Part shown: positions 16,305 through 31,830 of the stretch, in pieces
How the letters are laid out: each line of letters starts with the position of its first letter
Numbering within the stretch: position 1 is the stretch's first letter
Origin: Bdellovibrionales bacterium
GTDB taxonomy: Bacteria; Bdellovibrionota; Bdellovibrionia; Bdellovibrionales; UBA1609
Length of the DNA: 32,000 nucleotides
Assembly: GCA_965247685.1 (NCBI GenBank)
Contig: OZ252021.1
Coordinates: forward strand, 360,001 to 392,000
Direction: 5' to 3'
Translations under genes and position numbers: made by a program
Notes under the pieces: generated by a model
The model's database searches: none
Seen by the model: only the letters and a program-made list of their open reading frames with translations
Told to the model about the DNA's origin: nothing

Positions 16305-17438
16305 ATGGCTATTACCAAAAGATACTATATAAAAAAGAAGAAAAAGGTGATATTTTATCAAGCTGAGTATTTTTCAAAAGGAGTACGTATAGCTTCCAGA
16401 TCTTTTTCAAAAAAGAAAAATGCTCAATTATGGCTAAAAGAATTTAAAGAAAATACTTATTCAGTTACAACTTTTAACAAAGACATTACTTTTAAAAACT
16501 GTGTGGATCAGTTCTTTGTGGATGCTAAAACAAGGCTGACTCCTTCTACCTTTAAGAATTATTCTTGCCAAGCTCGTTATCTTTATCATAGCCCTCTCAG
16601 ATCGATTAAAATATCTGATTTAAAAGGTATATACATTGCTCAATGGCTTTTATGGATGAGAAATCAAACTACATCCCGTAACAAAAAAAGAAAGAATTTT
16701 TTTGCAGAGTTAAAACTCCTAAGCAGTATTTTAAATTGGTATAAAAATTATGTGAACGAAGATTTCAATATTCCTATTACTAGAAAGCATAAGAAGATGT
16801 GTGTTTATAAAATGGTTACTCCAAGACCCATGAACTACTTTATAAAACCTAGTGACTGTAGAAACTGGGTGAAATGGCTTAAACGAAATAAGGAGCCGGT
16901 TTATTGGAAGCTCGTCTTATTTATGCTCTCTACTGGAGTTCGGGTAGGTGAGGCTTGCGGGATTAAGTGGAGTGATATTGATTTTGAGCAAGGGATTTCA
17001 AGGTTGACACAAAAAGTGAAATGGGATGTTTCAAGCAGGAAACCTTTTATAGAAGATGTTTTTAAAACTCCAGCTGAAAGGATTCTTATCATTCCAAAAC
17101 CTTTAAGCGCTGTCTTATTAAGGATGAAAGAAATATCGAAAACAGAGCTTATTTTTGTGAACAAAAAAAATGAAATGCTTAAATACACTACCATACAATC
17201 CAACTTTAATGCTGGATTTATTGCATTAGGGCTTCCTTGGAGATCGACTCACATTTGCCGACATACTTTTGCAACCATGGCTTTGATGGGGACAAAGAAT
17301 TTATCTGCTGTGCAAGCAATCCTTGGTCATACAGAACCTAAGACAACACAACGATATGCAAAGATTGTGTCACTGCTCAACTCAAATATTGGAGAGAAAA
17401 CTTTTGATCTACTATTTAAAAGCAAATTATTGGAGTAA
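16305..17438 (+). CDS. Tyrosine recombinase / phage-type integrase
   Basis: C-terminal catalytic region: GVRVGEACGIKWSDI (Arg I), HICRHTFAT (H-x-x-R) and LGHTEPKTTQRYAK (His and nucleophilic Tyr). The N-terminal SAM-like region is typical of integrases. Confidence 0.88.
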   Translation: MAITKRYYIKKKKKVIFYQAEYFSKGVRIASRSFSKKKNAQLWLKEFKENTYSVTTFNKDITFKNCVDQFFVDAKTRLTPSTFKNYSCQARYLYHSPLRSIKISDLKGIYIAQWLLWMRNQTTSRNKKRKNFFAELKLLSSILNWYKNYVNEDFNIPITRKHKKMCVYKMVTPRPMNYFIKPSDCRNWVKWLKRNKEPVYWKLVLFMLSTGVRVGEACGIKWSDIDFEQGISRLTQKVKWDVSSRKPFIEDVFKTPAERILIIPKPLSAVLLRMKEISKTELIFVNKKNEMLKYTTIQSNFNAGFIALGLPWRSTHICRHTFATMALMGTKNLSAVQAILGHTEPKTTQRYAKIVSLLNSNIGEKTFDLLFKSKLLE

Positions 17439-21885: not shown

Positions 21886-21951
21886 ATGGAAAATATTTAA
21901 TGTTTTGAATCTAATAATATTGTATCAAAACAAATCATAATCCCTATAAAA
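21886..21951. repeat. 66-bp repeat R66a
   Basis: atggaaaatatttaatgttttgaatctaataatattgtatcaaaacaaatcataatccctataaaa matches 26717-26782 at 64/66 positions. Confidence 0.92.
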
Positions 21952-22645: not shown

Positions 22646-23680
22646 TTAAATCGATGAAATTTCATCTAAAAACAATTGTATATCTTTCTTAGTTTTTTGA
22701 TCATGAAAATCAATATTTTCCTTTTTTAAACAGTAATCAGAGGTGAAAAAGGATATTCGACCAATGTTGTCAAAATTTAATTTTATACGAGATTTTGCTA
22801 TTTTTGAATATTTCTTAATAGACAAGTCCCAAAGATAGTAAGAGATTTTAAATCGATCTAAAGTTACTTCATAAGAATCCATAGTAAAACATTGAACTGG
22901 TCCACCTCCACGAAATGCGCTTCCAAACAACGAAAGAAATATCATTTCAGAATCCATTCTATCAGCTTGAAGTTTCATCCTTGCATTTCCACTATTTAGA
23001 ATACCATTAACTATGTCCGTTCTGCGATCGGACTTCATACTAGACATAGCTTTCCTAATTTTCCAAGAATTACTCCATATTTGAAAAAATGGAGGAACAA
23101 ATTGATAAGTATTCACCATTCCACACATATTCCTATCAATAGATTCAGATAAATCTTTTTTGAATGAATCAGATTTTTCTCCAAAACATCCAAACCTAGT
23201 AAAATCGTAGCACAGAAATCTATTTATCATTAAAATATCCAAGACTGAATTACTATTTAAAGTATGTTTATATTCAGGCTCTAAAAGAGTATATAAGTTT
23301 TTATATGCTACCGTCTTATTTATATTTTGTTTCTTTGATTTAATTCTTTTTGATAAAAATTCGTTAAACCCTTCTTTAGTTATTTTTTCTTTAAGTCGTT
23401 TAGTGTAAATATCAAGGGCTGTATCAAAGAAACTCACAGAATCATCAGCTGACTTTAGTGATTTATCTATGTTTTTATATATCGATTCTTTTAATTCTTT
23501 ATCTATACCGAATTCTTTATCAATCTGATGTTGAGAAATCCCATAAAATTCTATCGTTGATGCTATAGATATAGCCATCTTTTTATCTTTCATGTGAGGG
23601 AATATATGTTTATAAAAATTGGGGGTTTTAGTACCAAATATCTTTCCCATTATGCTATTATCTAAATAAATCTTTTCCAA
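22646..23680 (-). CDS. Hypothetical 344-aa cytoplasmic protein (orphan gene in defence island)
   Basis: Long ORF with no TM helix and no signal peptide. No motif confidently recognised. The N-terminal KIYLDNSIMGKIF weakly resembles the first strand of PIN-like domains. Confidence 0.6.
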   Translation of the reverse strand: MEKIYLDNSIMGKIFGTKTPNFYKHIFPHMKDKKMAISIASTIEFYGISQHQIDKEFGIDKELKESIYKNIDKSLKSADDSVSFFDTALDIYTKRLKEKITKEGFNEFLSKRIKSKKQNINKTVAYKNLYTLLEPEYKHTLNSNSVLDILMINRFLCYDFTRFGCFGEKSDSFKKDLSESIDRNMCGMVNTYQFVPPFFQIWSNSWKIRKAMSSMKSDRRTDIVNGILNSGNARMKLQADRMDSEMIFLSLFGSAFRGGGPVQCFTMDSYEVTLDRFKISYYLWDLSIKKYSKIAKSRIKLNFDNIGRISFFTSDYCLKKENIDFHDQKTKKDIQLFLDEISSI

Positions 23681-23838
23681 TTAATACTCCTTAAAAACCA
23701 ATAGAAACCATCAAGCAATTATCCCATTCCTAACAACCACACGTCTGACACTGGTAATATGCCATTTTCCACCCGTCCTTATTGGGACATTGTCAGCGTT
23801 TAAAGTATCTGTTTTCTTTCCTCATATCTCACTTACAA

Positions 23839-23866
23839 TTGACATAATTTAATTATAATATACAAT
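23839..23866 (+). promoter_or_regulatory. Near-consensus sigma70-type promoter (TTGACA-16 nt-TACAAT)
   Basis: ttgaca at 23839-23844, a 16-nt AT-rich spacer, and tacaat at 23861-23866. Confidence 0.5.
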
Positions 23867-23872
23867 TTAGTA

Positions 23873-23989
23873 ACGATCAATCGGATGTAAATGAAACTTG
23901 TACTTAATTGATAAATTTGAAACTGTGGTTTGTTTAGATGCTACCACAGTATAAGATCAAAAGGGAGAACGAAAGTTCTCCCTTTTTTT
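23873..23989 (+). ncRNA. Candidate ~115-nt small RNA or terminated leader upstream of the CBASS operon
   Basis: Bounded by the promoter above and a strong terminator. Contains an internal perfect 8-bp hairpin (actgtggt 23922-23929 / accacagt 23943-23950). The only ORF inside it is 6 codons long. Confidence 0.3.
23963..23989 (+). terminator. Rho-independent terminator
   Basis: gggagaac-gaaa-gttctccc followed by T7. No plus-strand CDS precedes it. Confidence 0.8.
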
Positions 23990-23999
23990 GTCTTTTCAA
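23968..23999. repeat. 32-bp repeat T33b
   Basis: Matches 21803-21835. Confidence 0.85.
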
Positions 24000-24045
24000 T
24001 TGTGTGGAATATTATTGCAATCACCACTCCTGCCTTCTTTTTCCT

Positions 24046-24073
24046 TTGACTTTTATATAATTTATGTTATAAT
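24046..24073 (+). promoter_or_regulatory. Putative sigma70-type promoter of the CBASS operon (TTGACT-16 nt-TATAAT)
   Basis: ttgact at 24046-24051 and tataat at 24068-24073, about 50 nt upstream of the capV-like GTG start. Confidence 0.5.
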
Positions 24074-24124
24074 AAGTCATAATAAAAAAATATATTCATT
24101 TTAAGAGATTTTTTAAAGGACCAT

Positions 24125-25090
24125 GTGAAAATACAATCGAGTAACTCAACTATAAACAATAAAGAAAACCAGAAACCTTTCAAAATTCTTGCTCTAGACG
24201 GAGGCGGGGTGCGTGGAATCTTACCCGCTCAAATATTGGCACTTATAGAAGAAAAACTTAATATCAGCATATACGAAAATTTTGACCTTATTGTCGGAAC
24301 GAGTACAGGAAGCATTATTGCTGGAGCCATATCAACTAAATACCCATTATCTAAGTTAACAAAAAAATACGCACAATTTGCTCCTAAAATTTTCAAGAAG
24401 TCTCTTTTTAGGCATGGATTCTTTAAATCAAAATATAGCTCAAAGCCTTTAGAAAATTTTTTAAAAGAAGTGTTTGAGGAAAGAAAACTAGGAAATTTGG
24501 AAAAACCTCTAATTATTAACGCAACAAATGTAAGCACTGGAAATGTTATTATTTTCAAATCAAAATACCAAGAAGAAATGAGAAACGGGGAAGATTATAC
24601 TAGAGACAAAAAAATACCTCTGTTTAAGGCTATATTAGCTTCGTGTTCTGCTCCAATTTATTTTAATCCTGTAAATATAGATGGTTCTCTTATTTCTGAT
24701 GGTGGTCTTTGGGCAAACAATCCTTCACTTGTAGGCTATACGGATGCAATCAGAAATTTCAACGCAAAAAATATAAGAATTTTTTCTTTAGGCACAGGAA
24801 AAACTTCAATATCCAATGATTCCTCAAAATGGGGCTGGGGGAAATGTAGTGGATGGGGAGGTGTTAAATTAGTAGACCTTGTAATGTCTTGTCAAACAAC
24901 ATTCCCCTCAAATATACTTAACCTCATTAACAAGGAGAACACTCTAAGAATTAATCCAAGTATTGATGATTGCCCACTTGATGATTATGAGAAAATACCT
25001 AGTTTAAGCGCATTAGCACAGCAAGAATTTAACAATCGAAATATCGAAATCAAAAACTTTTTAACATTAGGAGGTAAAAGTGGAACATGA
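24125..25090 (+). CDS. capV: Patatin-like phospholipase (CBASS effector, CapV-like)
   Basis: LALDGGGVRG (oxyanion GGGxRG), GTSTG (GxSxG nucleophile) and SDGGLWANNP (catalytic Asp-Gly). GTG start with AAGGA upstream. The 3' end overlaps the next gene by 11 nt. Confidence 0.85.
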   Translation: MKIQSSNSTINNKENQKPFKILALDGGGVRGILPAQILALIEEKLNISIYENFDLIVGTSTGSIIAGAISTKYPLSKLTKKYAQFAPKIFKKSLFRHGFFKSKYSSKPLENFLKEVFEERKLGNLEKPLIINATNVSTGNVIIFKSKYQEEMRNGEDYTRDKKIPLFKAILASCSAPIYFNPVNIDGSLISDGGLWANNPSLVGYTDAIRNFNAKNIRIFSLGTGKTSISNDSSKWGWGKCSGWGGVKLVDLVMSCQTTFPSNILNLINKENTLRINPSIDDCPLDDYEKIPSLSALAQQEFNNRNIEIKNFLTLGGKSGT

Positions 25091-26042
25091 ACTGTTTTTC
25101 AAAGATTTTTTAAAAGATGAGGTTAATTTAAATAAAACCAGAATAGACACTCTAGAAGAAAGAAAAGAATCTATTACAAATTATCTGAACACAAATCTTA
25201 GTGGCTACAAAAAATTTAGTGAGCAAGGCTCCTATGCACATAAAACTATTATCAAACCCGTTGATACTAACGATAGCTTTGATGTTGATATTTTAGTTTA
25301 TATAAAGAATGATGATTTCACTCCAAAGGATTTTAAAGAAGACTATGTGGATACAATTTATCAGGTTTTTAAAGGAAATGATAATTATGTAGATAAAATT
25401 ACAAAGAACACTCGTTGTGTAACTATTAAATATGCTGGAGATTTTCATTTAGATATTGTTCCCTGCGTTGAAAAGGATAGTACTTACTATATATGTAATA
25501 GAAACAATAAAGAGTATGAAAAAACTGATGGTGATGGATACAAACAATGGCTGATTGGAAAAAATGAAATTACTGGAAATAATAATTTAAGAAAGGTAAC
25601 TCGTATTTTAAAATTTTTAAGAGATTATAAAAATACATTTTCAGTCAAATCCATACTACTCACTACAATTTTAGGTAATCAAGTTGGTAATGCTGAAAAT
25701 TTTTCTAATTTCCCAACAGCCTTGAAAGAGATTTCTAATAGACTAAATGATTTTCTTCAACAAAACGAAAATATGCCTATAATTGCAAACCCAGTCCTCC
25801 CTGAAGAAGACTTTAACAGACATTGGGATCAGATAAAATATAAAAATTTTAGGGAAAAGTTTAATTCTTATAATGAGAAGATTAATAAAGCATTTAAGGA
25901 AACAAAAAATAATGAAAGCGTAAAAAAATGGAGAGAAATATTTGGAGATACATTTGGAAGACTCATAGAAGGACCTAAAGAACCAAATAAATTATATAAT
26001 AAGACAATAGTGGCAACTAAACCATACTCCGAAAAGTTATAA
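25080..26042 (+). CDS. SMODS-type nucleotidyltransferase (CD-NTase, cGAS/DncV-like)
   Basis: Pol-beta NTase signature GSYAHKTIIKP...FDVDILVY plus the third acidic residue in FHLDIVPC. GTG start preceded by GGAGG. Positioned directly after the patatin gene, as in capV-dncV operons. Confidence 0.8.
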   Translation: MEHELFFKDFLKDEVNLNKTRIDTLEERKESITNYLNTNLSGYKKFSEQGSYAHKTIIKPVDTNDSFDVDILVYIKNDDFTPKDFKEDYVDTIYQVFKGNDNYVDKITKNTRCVTIKYAGDFHLDIVPCVEKDSTYYICNRNNKEYEKTDGDGYKQWLIGKNEITGNNNLRKVTRILKFLRDYKNTFSVKSILLTTILGNQVGNAENFSNFPTALKEISNRLNDFLQQNENMPIIANPVLPEEDFNRHWDQIKYKNFREKFNSYNEKINKAFKETKNNESVKKWREIFGDTFGRLIEGPKEPNKLYNKTIVATKPYSEKL

Positions 26043-26046
26043 TTAT

Positions 26047-26676
26047 TTGATTGATTTTGCTGAAAAAGAATTCAATGAAATAAAAGAATATTTTCCTAAT
26101 TCTTCTTATGATTCAGTCAAAAATAGAATTGATATTTCACTTACTATGCCTCCTCGGTACTATAAAGAAAGTAATCTTTCTGAATGGGAGATAAAGCTTT
26201 GTAATAAAAATCAAACAGGTTGGTTTGATGGTGAGTATTTGATTACAATTGATTTAAATAGTCAGAAAGTTTTTGAACTTTCGGAAAAGATAAAGAGTTT
26301 AGCAAAACAACTAGGTAAAACATTTTTTGATTTACATGTAAATTCAGATGGAAGTTGCTGTCTAGGAATAGATATAGAGAATAAAAAAATGACTCTAACT
26401 GCATTTATTTTTGAAAAAGTTTTTCCTTATTTTTCATGGCAAGCTTATTATGCCAAGTATAAAAGAATTCCTCCTTGTGGAGAGTTCTCTCACGGCGATG
26501 CTGGCAAGCAAGAGGCAATTCAAGACTATGAAAAAACCATGACATCTGTAGATAAATTTGGTCGAAATAAACCCTGTCTTTGTAAAAGTGGGAAAAAATA
26601 TAAGAAATGTTGTTTCCTTTCTGATGAAAAAAAGAAATCTTATTTAAGGGAATTCGAAAAAAACAATAACCTGTGA
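26047..26676 (+). CDS. E2 (UBC)-like protein with C-terminal SEC-C zinc-binding motif (Cap2-short-like)
   Basis: LHVNSDGSCCLGIDI resembles the UBC active site (H-P-N-x(3-4)-G-x-I-C-L-D-I). It is preceded by an N-terminal helix and strand-like segments. The C-terminus CLCKSGKKYKKCC is a SEC-C motif. TTG start 5 nt after the CD-NTase stop. Confidence 0.5.
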   Translation: MIDFAEKEFNEIKEYFPNSSYDSVKNRIDISLTMPPRYYKESNLSEWEIKLCNKNQTGWFDGEYLITIDLNSQKVFELSEKIKSLAKQLGKTFFDLHVNSDGSCCLGIDIENKKMTLTAFIFEKVFPYFSWQAYYAKYKRIPPCGEFSHGDAGKQEAIQDYEKTMTSVDKFGRNKPCLCKSGKKYKKCCFLSDEKKKSYLREFEKNNNL

Positions 26677-26716
26677 GATTGTAAGTAGAGGAGGCTCTAG
26701 AGAAAATATAGAAATG

Positions 26717-26782
26717 ATGGAAAATATTTAATATTTTGAATCTAAGAATATTGTATCAAAACAAATCATAATCCCTATAAAA
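26717..26782. repeat. 66-bp repeat R66b
   Basis: Matches 21886-21951 at 64/66 positions. Lies 40 nt after the stop of the E2-like gene. Confidence 0.92.
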
Positions 26783-26828
26783 TTTTAAAGACTCTCATGG
26801 TGTAAGAAATAATGTATTTGCTATCTTT

Positions 26829-27341
26829 ATGCATGAGGGTGAGCTTTCTTCCTCTTCTGTAAATAGCTTAATTTCGGACATTAAATCATTGGACAAAAAA
26901 ACAGACCATGAATTTGATTTATTATTAGATACTATTCTTATAACACAACAAAAAATATTAGCTACTGAAAACATCATGAGAGAATTAAACATATTACACA
27001 GAGCTGTTACTAAAAAAGAAGCTATTTATCAGTCACAATATATCTCAAACAATCTTGGTAATTATCCAAAATTATATCCTATAGAAATAGCACCTTTATT
27101 TGATTCAACTAGATACTTTCTAATCGAGATTAGCCTATTGTTTGACCACGCATATAAATCAAAGCAGTTGATTGAAAGTATTTATGAAAAGCTTAAATTT
27201 AAAAAGGAAGATAGAACATACATACAACCTGAGGTAAGAAAAAAATATGATGCGATTTTAGAAGAAACAAAAAAAAATAATTCAAATCCAAACCAAAAAA
27301 TATTTGATACGGTTATAAATAACAATAAAAAGACCACTTAG
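26829..27341 (+). CDS. Hypothetical 170-aa helical protein
   Basis: ORF only. No TM helix and no recognisable motif. Lies between the two defence operons. Confidence 0.45.
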   Translation: MHEGELSSSSVNSLISDIKSLDKKTDHEFDLLLDTILITQQKILATENIMRELNILHRAVTKKEAIYQSQYISNNLGNYPKLYPIEIAPLFDSTRYFLIEISLLFDHAYKSKQLIESIYEKLKFKKEDRTYIQPEVRKKYDAILEETKKNNSNPNQKIFDTVINNNKKTT

Positions 27342-27579
27342 ATTAAAACTTTCAAGATTAATATTTGGAGGATTTTTAGTTTTAGAAGAGAAGATTTGAA
27401 TATTAAAGCTGTAAAACCCTTCATTAGTTGATTACAGAGCAATTATGAAGGCAAACAACTCAAAACACACAGTTCTAAATTCGTTCACTCTCCCCCGTCA
27501 TTCTTTTAAAAGTCCTACTAGAGATATTTGTATCTATAAAATTAAAGTTTTTAAGACTTTAGTCCGACAATTGTAGAAT

Positions 27580-28812
27580 ATGTCTGTAGATACCTTACTG
27601 AATATACTTCTACCTGCTAGTTGGTTTGATTGGATCTTCTTTGGTTCTATCTTTGTACTATTTTTTTTGTCTATAGCAAATATTATTTCCATAAACCCAA
27701 ATGTTTTAGTAACAATAGGTATTCTTGGAACTTTTCTTGGTATAGCCACAGGGCTTAATGATTTCAACACTTCAGATATTAGCGCTAGTATTCCTCAATT
27801 ACTAAAAGGATTGAAACTTTCTTTTAAGACAAGCCTTTGGGGAATAATTTTTAGTTTAATTTTAAAAACTATCAATAGTTTTTTATCAACTACAGAGGAT
27901 ACATCAGATACACCAAAGAATATTCAAAATATGCTTTTTCAGATAAATAAAGGGTTATCTGATTTAAGAATAGATATTCATCATTCTTACAATGAGAAGT
28001 TAAGAATCGGCAATAAACAACACACAGAATTTCTTTCTGAATTCAGAAATTTTACAAAAACTATGGCCAAACAAAATTCCAAAGCATTGATCGAAGCTTT
28101 AAATGAAATCATTACAGATTTTAATAAAAATTTAACTGAACAATTTGGAGAAAATTTTAAACAATTAAATACAGCAGTTCATAAGCTAGTAGATTGGCAA
28201 GAAAATTATAAAACTCATATTGAAACTTTACAGAACAAAATGGACTTAGCTCATGAATCTATTTTAAAAACGGAAGAAGTTCTAAAACAAATTGCTCTAC
28301 ATATAAAAGAAATTCCTGAATATTTATCTCAATTCAAAGATATGTTGACCGCACTAAAAAGAACAACTGAGGAGCAGAAAGTTTATTTAACAGGAATAAA
28401 AGAATTAAAGGATCAAGCTATTCAATCTTTCCCTATAGTTGAAGAGAATATTAAAAAAATAACAACAGATTTTTCTGAAATTGCCGAAGAATTTAGTAAT
28501 AAAACAAAAGTAAATTTAAACTCTCAAAAGAAAACTTTTTCATCATTAGAAAAAGGATTTAGTGACTTACAAATTTCTTCCGAAGAGTTAAACAATCAAA
28601 TGCAATCTACTATGAAGGGCATCTTAGGAAAAATGTCTAATGAAATTAATAATAAGATAGAAGAATTCGATCAAAAAATGCAAGAAGAGTTAAGAAGAGT
28701 TATAGAAACAATGGGAAAGCACCTTGCTTCAATAAATGAAAAAGTTGCTAAAGATTACACTCCTATAATTAATCATCTACAAAAAATCCTAGAAGGAGTG
28801 AGCCCTCGTTGA
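27580..28812 (+). CDS. zorA: MotA/ExbB/TolQ-family channel protein with ~290-aa coiled-coil tail (ZorA-like, compact)
   Basis: Three TM helices. GILGTFLGIATGL and FKTSLWGIIFSLILK resemble the two conserved MotA/ExbB channel helices. The remainder is K/E/Q/L-rich with heptad character. An in-frame stop lies 2 codons upstream, so ATG 27580 is the only available start. Confidence 0.7.
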   Translation: MSVDTLLNILLPASWFDWIFFGSIFVLFFLSIANIISINPNVLVTIGILGTFLGIATGLNDFNTSDISASIPQLLKGLKLSFKTSLWGIIFSLILKTINSFLSTTEDTSDTPKNIQNMLFQINKGLSDLRIDIHHSYNEKLRIGNKQHTEFLSEFRNFTKTMAKQNSKALIEALNEIITDFNKNLTEQFGENFKQLNTAVHKLVDWQENYKTHIETLQNKMDLAHESILKTEEVLKQIALHIKEIPEYLSQFKDMLTALKRTTEEQKVYLTGIKELKDQAIQSFPIVEENIKKITTDFSEIAEEFSNKTKVNLNSQKKTFSSLEKGFSDLQISSEELNNQMQSTMKGILGKMSNEINNKIEEFDQKMQEELRRVIETMGKHLASINEKVAKDYTPIINHLQKILEGVSPR

Positions 28813-29510
28813 GTTCTTTAAAAGATATTATTGGTTCTAAAGCAGAAGATGAATCTCAATGGATTTCCATATCAGATTTCATGACTGCTTTAATGGTTAT
28901 TTTTCTGTTTATTGCAGTCATTTATATGAGAGAAGTGAATGGGATAATTAGTTCTTATAGAGATTCTAGAAATGCGATCTATAAAAATTTAAAGAAAGAA
29001 TTTGGAAGTGATTTAAAAAAATGGAAAGCTGAACTTATTAGAGAATCCTTAACTATTCGTTTTGTTGCACCAGAAATATTTTTCGATCCTGCTAAATCAA
29101 CAATCAAACCAGCATTTAAAATTATACTAAATAATTTTTGCCCCAGATATTTTAAGACTATTTATCAATCTAAAAAAGATATTGAGGAAATTAGGATAGA
29201 GGGTCACACATCTATAGAGTGGTTCAACTTTCCAAAAAACATAGCTTACTTTAAAAACATGGAATTATCTCAAAATAGAACACGATCTGTTTTACAATAT
29301 TGTTTCAATTTAGTAAAAAATTCAAACCAAAACAAAGAATGGATTAGAAAACATCTTACAGCTAATGGTCTTTCTTCAAGTAAGCCTTTAAAAAAATGTA
29401 ATCAACTCGCATGTCATAGAAGGGTTGAGTTTCGTGTGCAAGTCAAAGCAGAATCAGTGCTGAATAAAATATCAAATTTTGGAATGAAAAAAAATCGAAG
29501 GTTTAGATGA
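28809..29510 (+). CDS. zorB: MotB/OmpA-family stator-like protein (ZorB-like)
   Basis: QWISISDFMTALMVIFLFIAV is a MotB-type TM helix with the conserved Asp. OmpA-like C-terminus: RIEGHTS, LSQNRTRSVLQY, GLSSSKPL and RRVEFRV. The TTG start overlaps the upstream TGA. Confidence 0.75.
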   Translation: MSSLKDIIGSKAEDESQWISISDFMTALMVIFLFIAVIYMREVNGIISSYRDSRNAIYKNLKKEFGSDLKKWKAELIRESLTIRFVAPEIFFDPAKSTIKPAFKIILNNFCPRYFKTIYQSKKDIEEIRIEGHTSIEWFNFPKNIAYFKNMELSQNRTRSVLQYCFNLVKNSNQNKEWIRKHLTANGLSSSKPLKKCNQLACHRRVEFRVQVKAESVLNKISNFGMKKNRRFR

Positions 29511-30364
29511 AAATTGAAGTGGATTTTAAGGGTTTAATTAGATTAAAACAAAAAATAAATGCTTCCGAAACCAGTTGGAATTTGGATGATTCTCACCCAT
29601 TGAGTGCTTTGTCTTTGTACGAAGGTGAAGAAGTTAGTTCTTTAAACGAGATTGAAATTTATTGTGACTTACTTACTAATAAGAAAGGAGAGCAAATCAT
29701 ACTTTATATCAAAGATTCCAGAATATCGGAGGAAAAAGTTTCAGAACCAGAAAGGGCTCCAAAATTTCATATAGCAGATTGTCGTACACTTGAGGAAATG
29801 AGAGAAAATAATCGTTCTGCAAGATACGTTACTACAACCAGAGCTACAGGAACATTTCTTGTGGATGCGACAAATCCTGACACGCAAGAAGTTATAAAAG
29901 ATTTAGAAAGGCCTTTACATGTATGCAAAAATTGTCTGACAAAATTAGGTTGGAACGGCTATGATCCTGAAAATCCCAAGAAGCAAAGAAATCTTATAGT
30001 TAATGAGTTTTCAATAATTGATTTTCTCGCCACTTACAGCACTTTCTTTAAGGAAAAACCAAATCAGAGTGATATTACGACAAAGACAGGTGGTTATGTT
30101 AAAAATTGGCCAGAGATAGCCAATAGACATAAAGAGAGAACAGATTGGAAGTGTGAGAAGTGTGAAGTTAATCTAAGCACTAAAAAAGAGTATCTTCATT
30201 GTCATCATAAAAATGGTGTTATACAGGAAAATACCAGCTCAAATTTGGAAGCTTTATGTTTTGAATGTCATGCTAATAAGCCTTATCATGGCCAACTTAA
30301 AGCTATCTTAAACAAACAGCCTGAAATCAAAAAGGAAATAGACAATCTAAGAAAGAGAACTTGA
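29507..30364 (+). CDS. zorE: HNH endonuclease-domain protein (ZorE-like)
   Basis: C-terminal CEKCEVNL...LHCHHKNGV...SNLEALCFECHANK is an HNH motif with CxxC...CxxC zinc knuckles. ATGA overlap with the upstream gene. Confidence 0.7.
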   Translation: MKIEVDFKGLIRLKQKINASETSWNLDDSHPLSALSLYEGEEVSSLNEIEIYCDLLTNKKGEQIILYIKDSRISEEKVSEPERAPKFHIADCRTLEEMRENNRSARYVTTTRATGTFLVDATNPDTQEVIKDLERPLHVCKNCLTKLGWNGYDPENPKKQRNLIVNEFSIIDFLATYSTFFKEKPNQSDITTKTGGYVKNWPEIANRHKERTDWKCEKCEVNLSTKKEYLHCHHKNGVIQENTSSNLEALCFECHANKPYHGQLKAILNKQPEIKKEIDNLRKRT

Positions 30365-30687: not shown

Positions 30688-31830
30688 ATGAATAAAAACA
30701 AACAAACAGGTCGTTTTATTCCGAAATTGAATGGAGACAGCTATGAAGCTTTTATCCCAAACCCTCTTCCTCTTTCTGCTCCTTTTCGAATGGAACAGTT
30801 TTATACATTGCTTGAGAAAGCAAACACATCTCTAGGAAGACTAGATGGAATTACAACGGTTCTTCCAAGTTTTAGAAGATTATCTAATATATTTATGAAA
30901 AAGGAAGCCACTCTTTCTTCTAAGATAGAAGGTACACAATCAACTTTATCTGACTTTTTAATTTTTGAAACAAAAGAAGATCAAACAAAATCAGAAGATA
31001 ACATAGAAATTCAAAACTATATTTTAGCTATGGAACATGGTTTGCATAAAATAACAAAACTACCTGTGTCTCGTAGACTGATTTGTGAAATTCATAAAAT
31101 ACTTCTTTCAAGTGGTCGAGGAAGTGATAAAACTCCTGGCGAGTTTCGTAAAACACAAAATTGGATAGGGGGATCTCGCCCAGAAAACGCTATTTTTATC
31201 CCACCACCCCCTGAAAACCTTGATGAATGTTTTAGTGATTTTGAGAAATTTTTAAATAATAAAAACGTGCAAATGCCCACTCTTATCAAAGTTGCTTTAG
31301 CACACGTTCAGTTTGAAACTCTACACCCTTTTTCGGATGGAAACGGAAGAGTAGGAAGACTTCTAATTACTTTCATGCTTTGTTTAAGTGGTCTTTTAAA
31401 AGAACCTTTATTATATCTCAGTTTATATTTTCATAAGCATAGAACAGAGTATTACAATCTACTACAATCTGTTAGAGAAAAAGGAGATTGGGAAGCTTGG
31501 GTTCATTTCTTTCTGACAGGGATTATAGAAACTGCTAAACAAATTCAAGATACATCTCATCAAATTATTAATACATTCAAAGAAGATGAAAAAAGAATAA
31601 AGGGTGAGTGTACGGCTGGGGTTATTAAGGCCTATGGTTGTTTTAAAACATATCCTATTGCTTCGGTTAAAAAAGTGCAGGAAGAATCTTCCTCATCCTA
31701 TCAAACTACTTTAAAATCGTTAAAAACTTTGGAAAAACTTGGATTAGTTAAAGAAATAACAGGTCGACATCATAACAAAATTTTTATTTATAAGAGTTAC
31801 ATAAACATCCTTGAAAGAGGACTCAATTAA
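30688..31830 (+). CDS. fic: Fic-family protein (AMPylase-type) with N-terminal inhibitory helix and C-terminal wHTH-like region
   Basis: Fic motif HPFSDGNGRVGR (HxFx[DE]GNGRxxR). N-terminal SSKIEG fits the [ST]xxxE[GN] inhibitory motif. The length and layout are typical of Fic_N + Fic proteins. Confidence 0.88.
   Translation: MNKNKQTGRFIPKLNGDSYEAFIPNPLPLSAPFRMEQFYTLLEKANTSLGRLDGITTVLPSFRRLSNIFMKKEATLSSKIEGTQSTLSDFLIFETKEDQTKSEDNIEIQNYILAMEHGLHKITKLPVSRRLICEIHKILLSSGRGSDKTPGEFRKTQNWIGGSRPENAIFIPPPPENLDECFSDFEKFLNNKNVQMPTLIKVALAHVQFETLHPFSDGNGRVGRLLITFMLCLSGLLKEPLLYLSLYFHKHRTEYYNLLQSVREKGDWEAWVHFFLTGIIETAKQIQDTSHQIINTFKEDEKRIKGECTAGVIKAYGCFKTYPIASVKKVQEESSSSYQTTLKSLKTLEKLGLVKEITGRHHNKIFIYKSYINILERGLN

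Follow-up and report, generated by a model that had tools for sequence, protein, structure and literature searches.

The E2-only (type II-short) form of CBASS, the antiphage signalling system based on cyclic oligonucleotides, counts among the ubiquitin system's simplest relatives, and only its Serratia example, which has no SEC-C motif and carries a glycine tail on its cyclase, has been dissected. Here, we compared with it an E2-CBASS regulator with a SEC-C metal-binding knuckle, a protein of 209 amino acids (aa) encoded at 26047-26676 on the forward strand of a 32,000-nucleotide (nt) stretch of DNA from a Bdellovibrionales bacterium (contig OZ252021.1, positions 360,001 to 392,000; this whole stretch is called the window below). 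Information about the Serratia marcescens system, SmCdnG-SmE2, was taken from its structures (PDB 8HSB, 8YJY and 9KKB) and from two accounts (Yan et al. bioRxiv 10.1101/2022.05.25.493364; Xiao et al. 2026, PMC12948482). SmCdnG is a clade G cyclase of 407 aa that ends in Gly-Glu, and its ubiquitin-like C-terminal helix and three-stranded sheet recruit SmE2 via three interfaces (Xiao et al. 2026, PMC12948482). SmE2 strips E407, or a fused MBP or GFP, after G406 of SmCdnG; C101 and H87 are required both to cut the cyclase tail in this way, without ATP, and to form the covalent link, and H152, which sits in a C-terminal loop over the active site, tunes the conversion between isopeptide and thioester (Yan et al. 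bioRxiv 10.1101/2022.05.25.493364). According to the same account, both histidines are conserved in the E2s of E2-CBASS only and not in Cap2 E2 domains. The Cap2/Cap3 type II CBASS (for example Enterobacter cloacae Cap2-CdnD02, PDB 7TO3), in which the cyclase C-terminus is likewise the conjugated moiety, differs by an E1 adenylation domain fused to its E2 and by its JAB peptidase.

Our analysis revealed an intact E2-only CBASS operon, of which the window protein is the regulatory subunit of E2 type. It is an ordinary member of a catalogued subclass, since the operon type is already covered by PADLOC models and by what Yan and Xiao class as 'E2-CBASS'. We favored, with a probability of about 0.75, the reading that this E2-only CBASS regulator applies SmE2-like chemistry to the tail of its cyclase and uses the SEC-C knuckle as part of a docking platform.

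The E2 gene, its operon and the fold of its product

The E2 open reading frame (ORF) runs uninterrupted for 209 codons from a TTG start 4 nt past the stop codon of the preceding gene, and this start is credible because homologs start at the same position (MI.YS..E...). All peptides quoted in the initial annotation of this ORF were found in its translation, at aa 96-114 (LHVNSDGSCCLGIDIENKK), aa 4-16 (FAEKEFNEIKEYF) and aa 177-189 (CLCKSGKKYKKCC). SEC-C (PF02810) was the sole Pfam domain, at aa 173-189 with 29.7 bits (cut-off 20.4) and E 6e-7; the Pfam library scanned did not contain PF26395 'E2-CBASS', and a homolog, P0020, also gave SEC-C only. In the PADLOC collection, 12 CBASS E2 or E1-E2 models matched the ORF, led by PDLC00872 (E 3.7e-18, aa 59-197), the alignment of which spans the SEC-C region, and including the E1-E2 model PDLC00833 at E 3.4e-13. 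A sequence search of the PDB returned SEC-C chains of SecA and YchJ as the only matches.

The gene is the last of three overlapping or abutting genes, in the order CapV, CD-NTase and E2. The first (24125-25090, forward strand) encodes a CapV-type patatin phospholipase effector of 321 aa (Pfam Patatin, E 1.9e-29; PADLOC CBASS Effector/Phospholipase PDLC00758, E 3e-85) with GGGVRG, GTSTGS and SDGG motifs. The second (25080-26042, forward strand), overlapping capV by 11 nt, encodes a CD-NTase/SMODS cyclase of 320 aa (SMODS, E 1.9e-34; DncV-like NTFase, E 1.3e-13; PADLOC Cyclase PDLC00793, E 3.5e-117) with the catalytic motifs QGSY, DVD and LDIV. Neither an E1 domain nor JAB/Cap3 was present among the eight ORFs scanned at 22646-30364 with Pfam and PADLOC, thus placing the operon in the E2-only (type II-short) category and setting it apart from Cap2/Cap3 systems.

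An AlphaFold2 model of the E2, built from 29 homologs, had a pLDDT of 88 and a pTM of 0.81. It comprises, in order, an N-terminal helix, a beta-meander, the active-site loop, a crossover helix (117-138) and a loop (139-149), and ends with a helix (150-164), the knuckle (173-189) and a further helix (190-206); the ubiquitin-conjugating (UBC)/E2-fold core, from alpha1 to the crossover helix, occupies aa 1-148 (26047-26490, forward strand). The N-terminal helix expected from the sequence was recovered, with FAEKEFNEIKEYF on predicted helix 6-15, and so was the proposed beta-meander, with RIDISLTM, EWEIKLC and GEYLITIDL on predicted strands 27-32, 47-51 and 64-69. In an exhaustive VIA-align comparison with 48,161 chains, the Serratia CBASS E2 came out on top (8hsb_B, Z 7.5, 125 residues, root-mean-square deviation 3.7), followed by UFC1 (7nvk, Z 6.7), the Cap2 E2 domain (7to3_A, Z 6.7), BubCD, UEV domains and canonical E2s, and ranks 1-12 were all UBC/UEV-type folds (E2s, UEV domains, FANCL). 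The E2 assignment is safe because these uniform top matches agree with the independent PADLOC profile matches. Thus, the suggestion that the ORF encodes an E2/UBC-fold protein in a CBASS (SMODS) operon held in the model, in the comparison with the Cap2 E2 domain and in the operon genes.

SmCdnG-SmE2 and the window system are alike in being E2-only, in having no E1 and no JAB, and in using a stand-alone UBC-fold E2, SmE2 being the best structural match to the window protein. On the other hand, SmE2 has about 160 aa and no SEC-C, and the profile of the window E2 family finds every SEC-C chain in the PDB but not 8hsb_B. The cyclases also differ. The window cyclase, at 320 aa, is not of the extended SmCdnG type (PADLOC cyclase models end near its residue 295), lacks the ubiquitin-like subdomain, and ends in ATKPYS-EKL instead of the conserved C-terminal glycine; its nearest solved relatives, by both sequence and fold, were BcCdnD (9sa4) and EcCdnC (6p80).

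Catalytic residues, the cyclase tail and a proposed mechanism

A word-indexed search with the E2 gave 29 relatives, nearly all of them carrying SEC-C, and when 1.84 billion cluster representatives were searched exhaustively with a profile, 76 clusters scored E<=1e-30. Conservation was counted over 174 family representatives aligned to the family profile. In a phylum-wide genome survey, the E2 occurred in 5 of 401 genomes.

In the active-site loop, D95-L-H97-V-N-S-D-G-S-C104-C105-L-G107 (26329-26367, forward strand), H97 was conserved in all 174 representatives, C105 in 173 and D95 in 153. The initial annotation had compared this loop with the HPN-type loop of UBC proteins and had left it open which residue of the Cys-Cys pair is catalytic. 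The family alignment points to C105 as the catalytic cysteine, because it is near-universal and C104 is present in only 119 of 174 sequences; C104 was therefore rejected as a candidate, the remaining 55 relatives having L, A, V or F there. As for the HxN...C motif expected in homologs, its histidine (174/174) and cysteine (173/174) were upheld and its asparagine was not: N99, the Asn of 'HPN', occurred in just 51 of 174, and the canonical HPN motif was discarded. The loop is better described by the protease-like His/Cys/His set of E2-CBASS E2s. The third member of this set would be H149 (173/174), in the loop K139-RIPPCGEFSH149-G after the crossover helix (26461-26496, forward strand), where P143 and G145 were each conserved in 115 of 174. 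H97, C105 and H149 follow one another in the chain in the same order as the corresponding residues of SmE2, and by order and spacing H97 probably corresponds to H87, C105 to C101 and H149 to H152. A Cys with two flanking His residues is thus a conserved likeness between the two systems.

The C-terminal end of the window cyclase reads ...IVATKPYSEKL, and its segment V311-A-T-K-P-Y-S317 / E-K-L320 (26010-26039, forward strand) is a putative recognition and processing site for the E2. With the cyclase as query, 1,742 relatives were retrieved at E<=1e-10, and the top 120 (54-66% identical) were analyzed; among these 120, 99 were free-standing cyclases and 21 were cyclase-E2 fusions. The motif [KR][PL][YWF] was present within the last 16 residues of 85 of the 99 free-standing homologs, and the relaxed form, [KRSTQ][PLI][YWFH] plus a small residue, in 97 of 99, with the consensus P-T-V-x-A-T-K-P-Y-A-x-x-D-COOH. 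Across these 97, the aromatic was mostly followed by Ala (79; Gly in 9 and Ser in 7), exactly three residues trailed the small residue in 55, and Asp was the final residue in 66.

Natural single-chain fusions of CD-NTase, E2 and SEC-C numbered at least 33, and they argue independently that cyclase and knuckled E2 act as one unit. The E2 profile search yielded 13 matches of 528-607 aa with the E2-SEC-C unit at the C-terminus, and three of these were scanned for domains, two of which (P0032 and P0064) showed an N-terminal DncV-like nucleotidyltransferase domain and a C-terminal SEC-C. Among the 21 fusions found with the cyclase, 20 had KPYA in the linker, within the motif ...ATKPYA.... A bond that is flanked on either side by conserved residues, and that the whole E2 follows in the fusions, fits the pattern expected of a processing site. 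In the AlphaFold2 model of one fusion, P0189 (61% identical to the window cyclase; pLDDT 93, pTM 0.67), nothing structured was seen from cyclase helix 281-292 to the E2 domain, and the linker 304-310 had a pLDDT below 50 and the tail block 311-330 a pLDDT of 82-84.

The tails in other loci were inspected for seven relatives in other genomes (L082, L083, L084 and L094-L097) and for a Haliscomenobacter plasmid. Upstream of every E2-SEC-C relative inspected in its locus, the gene product ended in [KD]P[YW] plus 1-5 residues. The upstream gene was a cyclase in L082/L091 (tail ATKPYAN), L084/L093 (IKPWS), L095 (PKPYGKGN), L096 (TDPWSC) and L097 (NKPWRSEK), gave no cyclase match in L094 (SKPWRAWW), and encoded a 162-aa TIR-like (ThsB-like) protein in L083/L092 (SKPWSY). 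The upstream CD-NTases matched differing cyclase models. On plasmid pHALHY02 of Haliscomenobacter hydrossis (Bacteroidota; L098, NC_015512.1, 2598-4432), the cyclase of a cyclase-E2 pair ends in VKPWCRS, and the next gene has H...CL, GEYGHG and CxC...CH; RefSeq names the two only 'nucleotidyltransferase' and 'SEC-C metal-binding domain-containing protein', and the plasmid gene table, which is incomplete, lists no effector gene flanking them. The subclass with a knuckled E2 and a KPY-type tail was found in at least three phyla (the Bdellovibrio-like phylum, Bacteroidota in the form of this plasmid, and Pseudomonadota with Thiothrix) and in many metagenome bins.

The locus with the TIR-like protein was also recorded in its own right. 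At L092:6970-9256 (minus strand; genome G053, from the same order as the window genome), an E2-SEC-C homolog of 228 aa (PADLOC E2, E 4.7e-24) is preceded not by a CD-NTase but by the ThsB-like TIR protein (E 2.2e-14), which ends in ...PSKPWSY, and further upstream are a 143-aa protein without assignment and a second TIR-like gene. Here, a CBASS E2 and its tail seem to have been taken over by a signalling enzyme of the Thoeris type. The main text of a Thoeris survey describes TIRs associated with Cap2/Cap3 that have Gly tails, and SEC-C or an E2-like protein goes unmentioned in that main text.

Taken together, these features suggest the following mechanism for the window operon. By homology with SmCdnG-SmE2, the E2 is most likely a cysteine-protease-like transpeptidase that needs neither E1 nor ATP and takes the cyclase tail as its substrate. 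With help from H97, C105 would attack the tail of the CD-NTase after ...ATKPY-S317 and free EKL, a putative cut placed by analogy with G406/E407 of SmCdnG, where the trailing residues are also removed. A thioester would next hold the cyclase until its transfer to a lysine, which would give an isopeptide and possibly chains of cyclase, and H149 would modulate the interconversion of the thioester and isopeptide bonds; as in Cap2/Cap3 systems, the C-terminus of the cyclase would thus be the conjugated moiety. Priming by the E2 would set how readily the cyclase makes its nucleotide signal, which would switch on CapV and kill the infected cell. Recognition appears to be tail-based, because the cyclases have no ubiquitin-like subdomain and the unrelated upstream enzymes have only the KP[YW] tail in common. 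Since a short tail here replaces a body-to-body interface and a knuckled hairpin has been added, we infer that the tail, or the cyclase, or the acidic trailing peptide docks on a platform to which the basic knuckle and the hairpin contribute.

Several points weigh against this reading. First, the window tail itself has Ser in place of the usual Ala and is without the usual Asp at +3, and the good pLDDT of the tail in the P0189 fusion may just reflect nearness to the E2 N-terminus. Second, the spacings in H97-C105-H149 are 8 and 44, compared with 14 and 51 in SmE2, and the equivalence was drawn from the order and spacing of the residues. Third, a VIA-align Z of 7.5 falls in the tool's own middling range (Z 7-8), and Foldseek found nothing significant for the E2 model in the PDB (8hsb_B at E 0.39). 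Finally, a position of the knuckle near C105, or in contact with the tail, is presumed in this reading, and a search of the available papers found no biochemistry on any SEC-C-bearing E2.

The SEC-C knuckle and its possible roles

The knuckle spans aa 173-189 (RNKPCLCKSGKKYKKCC; 26563-26613, forward strand), with ligands C177, C179, C188 and C189 defined by Pfam PF02810 and by alignment to SecA and YchJ. The first three were conserved in 161, 160 and 159 of the 174 representatives, and the fourth position held a ligand in 138 (Cys in 95 and His in 43). The early suggestion of a genuine SEC-C metal-binding motif was thereby borne out: beyond the Pfam match, the PDB matches and the conserved ligands, the sequence has the CxCx(8-9)C[CH] pattern, the Ser-Gly pair and the basic/aromatic signature of PF02810 and scores above its gathering cut-off. 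In the model, the knuckle is a predicted Cys4 metal site between two C-terminal helices. It shares CxCxSGx8C[CH], Ser-Gly and the Lys-Tyr-Lys signature with the C-terminal metal-binding domain (MBD) of SecA and with the SEC-C of YchJ/YecA (PDB 1SX1, 1TM6, 1OZB and 9L6B), whereas the SecA knuckle lies at the end of a flexible tail, and a link of the window E2 to the Sec pathway was not evident.

The suggestion that an E2 with SEC-C might be an undescribed combination found no support. By regular expression, about 91% of the family (158/174) had the SEC-C ligand pattern, and the members without it were mostly truncated or degenerate in appearance. PADLOC E2 profiles span the knuckle, ESM Atlas clusters pair PF02810 SEC-C with PF26395 'E2-CBASS', and SEC-C proteins are annotated beside nucleotidyltransferases in RefSeq. 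Thus, the alignment indicates that SEC-C is a family-wide module of these E2s and not a novel fusion. In the literature, SEC-C or SecA was mentioned together with CBASS, CD-NTase or SMODS in no searchable open paper, key subscription papers lying outside this search. A scan with the SEC-C peptide pattern found no locus with an E2 core among 80, the matches being unrelated SEC-C proteins (SecA and small SEC-C ORFs). As a separate observation, genome G033, from the same family as the window genome, had 32 matches at E<=0.001 (for example G033:C2:239826-239936), mostly in scattered open frames of about 170 aa with the SEC-C motif and with near-identical scores (E 3.4e-9 to 4.5e-9); these resemble a knuckle-bearing gene family that is mobile or expanded and present in multiple copies.

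The place of the knuckle between hairpin-packed helices of a confident model raises the possibility that it is a structural staple for the C-terminal helical hairpin, which stands in place of the canonical E2 alpha3/alpha4, with no binding or regulatory role. Small Cys4 knuckles often stabilize structures in this way, and degenerate knuckles (CPCSCGKRLGKC in L097 and CFCGKLRKLIECC in P0025) retain the cysteines without the SEC-C lysines and aromatic residue. However, residues that are not ligands were conserved well beyond the needs of a staple (S181 in 141/174, K184 in 134/174, Y/F185 in 125/174 and K/R186 in 144/174), which argues against a mere staple and makes this role improbable.

The same retention of generic SEC-C residues (S181, G182, K184, Y185 and K186) would be expected of a protein that binds a generic SEC-C partner, and the knuckle might therefore be, much as the initial annotation proposed, a targeting module that docks the E2 and its tethered cyclase on the ribosome, SecB or acidic lipids, placing or gating the signalling and not recognizing the tail. 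The knuckle aligns closely to the SecA MBD and YchJ, at E 2.5e-4 to 5e-4 with the single sequence and down to 8.5e-8 with the family profile; the SecA MBD is reported to bind SecB and ribosomes and to contain Zn or Fe (bioRxiv 10.1101/613315), and the effector CapV works at the membrane. Nevertheless, we considered targeting unlikely, for the knuckle strictly accompanies the KP[YW] tail, whichever enzyme precedes it, which suggests a partner inside the system, and is retained in the fused cyclase-E2 forms. Moreover, the papers searched link no CBASS to ribosomes or SecB, and the host genome is a reduced one of 1.28 Mb.

A sensor switch was the least probable of the roles considered and appeared very unlikely. 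It would have the Cys4 site lose its metal or become oxidized, or the lysines bind nucleic acid, upon infection, so that the E2-cyclase pair is released or activated. A precedent exists in the C-terminal SEC-C-type motif of YchJ (Cys138/140/149/150 and Lys144/145/147/148), reportedly a reversible disulfide switch in which clustered lysines bind DNA (PMC13377102). Lysines are just as abundant in the E2 knuckle (K180, K183, K184, K186 and K187). However, this is pure analogy with one protein, the N-terminal SEC-C of YchJ is an ordinary Zn site, and the occurrence of either Cys or His as fourth ligand in the family (95 versus 43) fits a structural metal site. Quite improbable, too, is a broader proposal in which SEC-C would supply this CBASS subclass with its missing sensor of infection (a switch that is labile to metal or redox changes, or that binds nucleic acid or ribosomes, and that keeps the E2-cyclase inactive until a phage cue), and in which the KP[YW]-small-x-x-Asp tail and the knuckled E2 would make up a portable 'plug-and-socket' regulator for unrelated signal enzymes such as CD-NTases and TIR proteins. 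The strict coupling of knuckle and tail favors a role inside the system, as in the reading of the knuckle as part of a docking platform.

The defence island and its significance

A candidate sigma-70 promoter for the operon (TTGACT-16-TATAAT with TG; 24046-24073, forward strand) was matched by pattern at 11/12 in a consensus scan, and a terminator-like hairpin at 23959-23986 occurs as a single copy within the window. Beginning 41 nt past the E2 stop, a 66-nt direct repeat (26717-26782) is identical at 64 of 66 positions to a copy at 21886-21951, the pair enclosing 4.8 kb that end just past the E2 gene. The repeat is the 3' limit of the CBASS cassette, and the pair may be a trace of cassette insertion in a defence island. 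Beyond it, a 170-aa ORF (26829-27341, forward strand) lies between CBASS and Zorya and had no Pfam or PADLOC match; it was considered as a fourth CBASS gene and rejected, being past the bounding repeat, without a family match and without an equivalent in the related operons inspected (in L091, a mad2-like gene follows instead). Directly downstream of this ORF is an intact type II Zorya (27580-30364, forward strand), in which PADLOC matched ZorA2 (E 3.9e-74), ZorB2 (E 1.5e-77) and the HNH protein ZorE2 (E 7.6e-74). Nor did Pfam or PADLOC match an ORF of 344 aa (22646-23680, reverse strand) that diverges from the CBASS operon.

On the upstream side of the defence genes, a tyrosine recombinase/integrase was found at 16305-17438 (forward strand, E 4e-25), and on the downstream side a Fic adenylyltransferase at 30688-31830 (forward strand, E 3.9e-50); these flanks are consistent with a mobile defence island. 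Weak matches to MIDAS adhesins of a Bdellovibrio-type family suggest a Bdellovibrio-like host, whose genome consists of one contig with a GC content of about 32%.

For the window, the result is mainly one of annotation: an intact CBASS stands beside a type II Zorya in the defence island of a small-genome bacterium. Its E2 belongs to a sister subclass of the Serratia system, with a short cyclase, a KPY-small tail from which a leaving peptide of constant length (three residues) would be released, and a metal-knuckled E2. If the knuckle and the tail form a self-contained recognition pair, this would explain how one regulator can pass from one immune signalling enzyme to another, and it would offer a compact tag-and-ligase pair to study.

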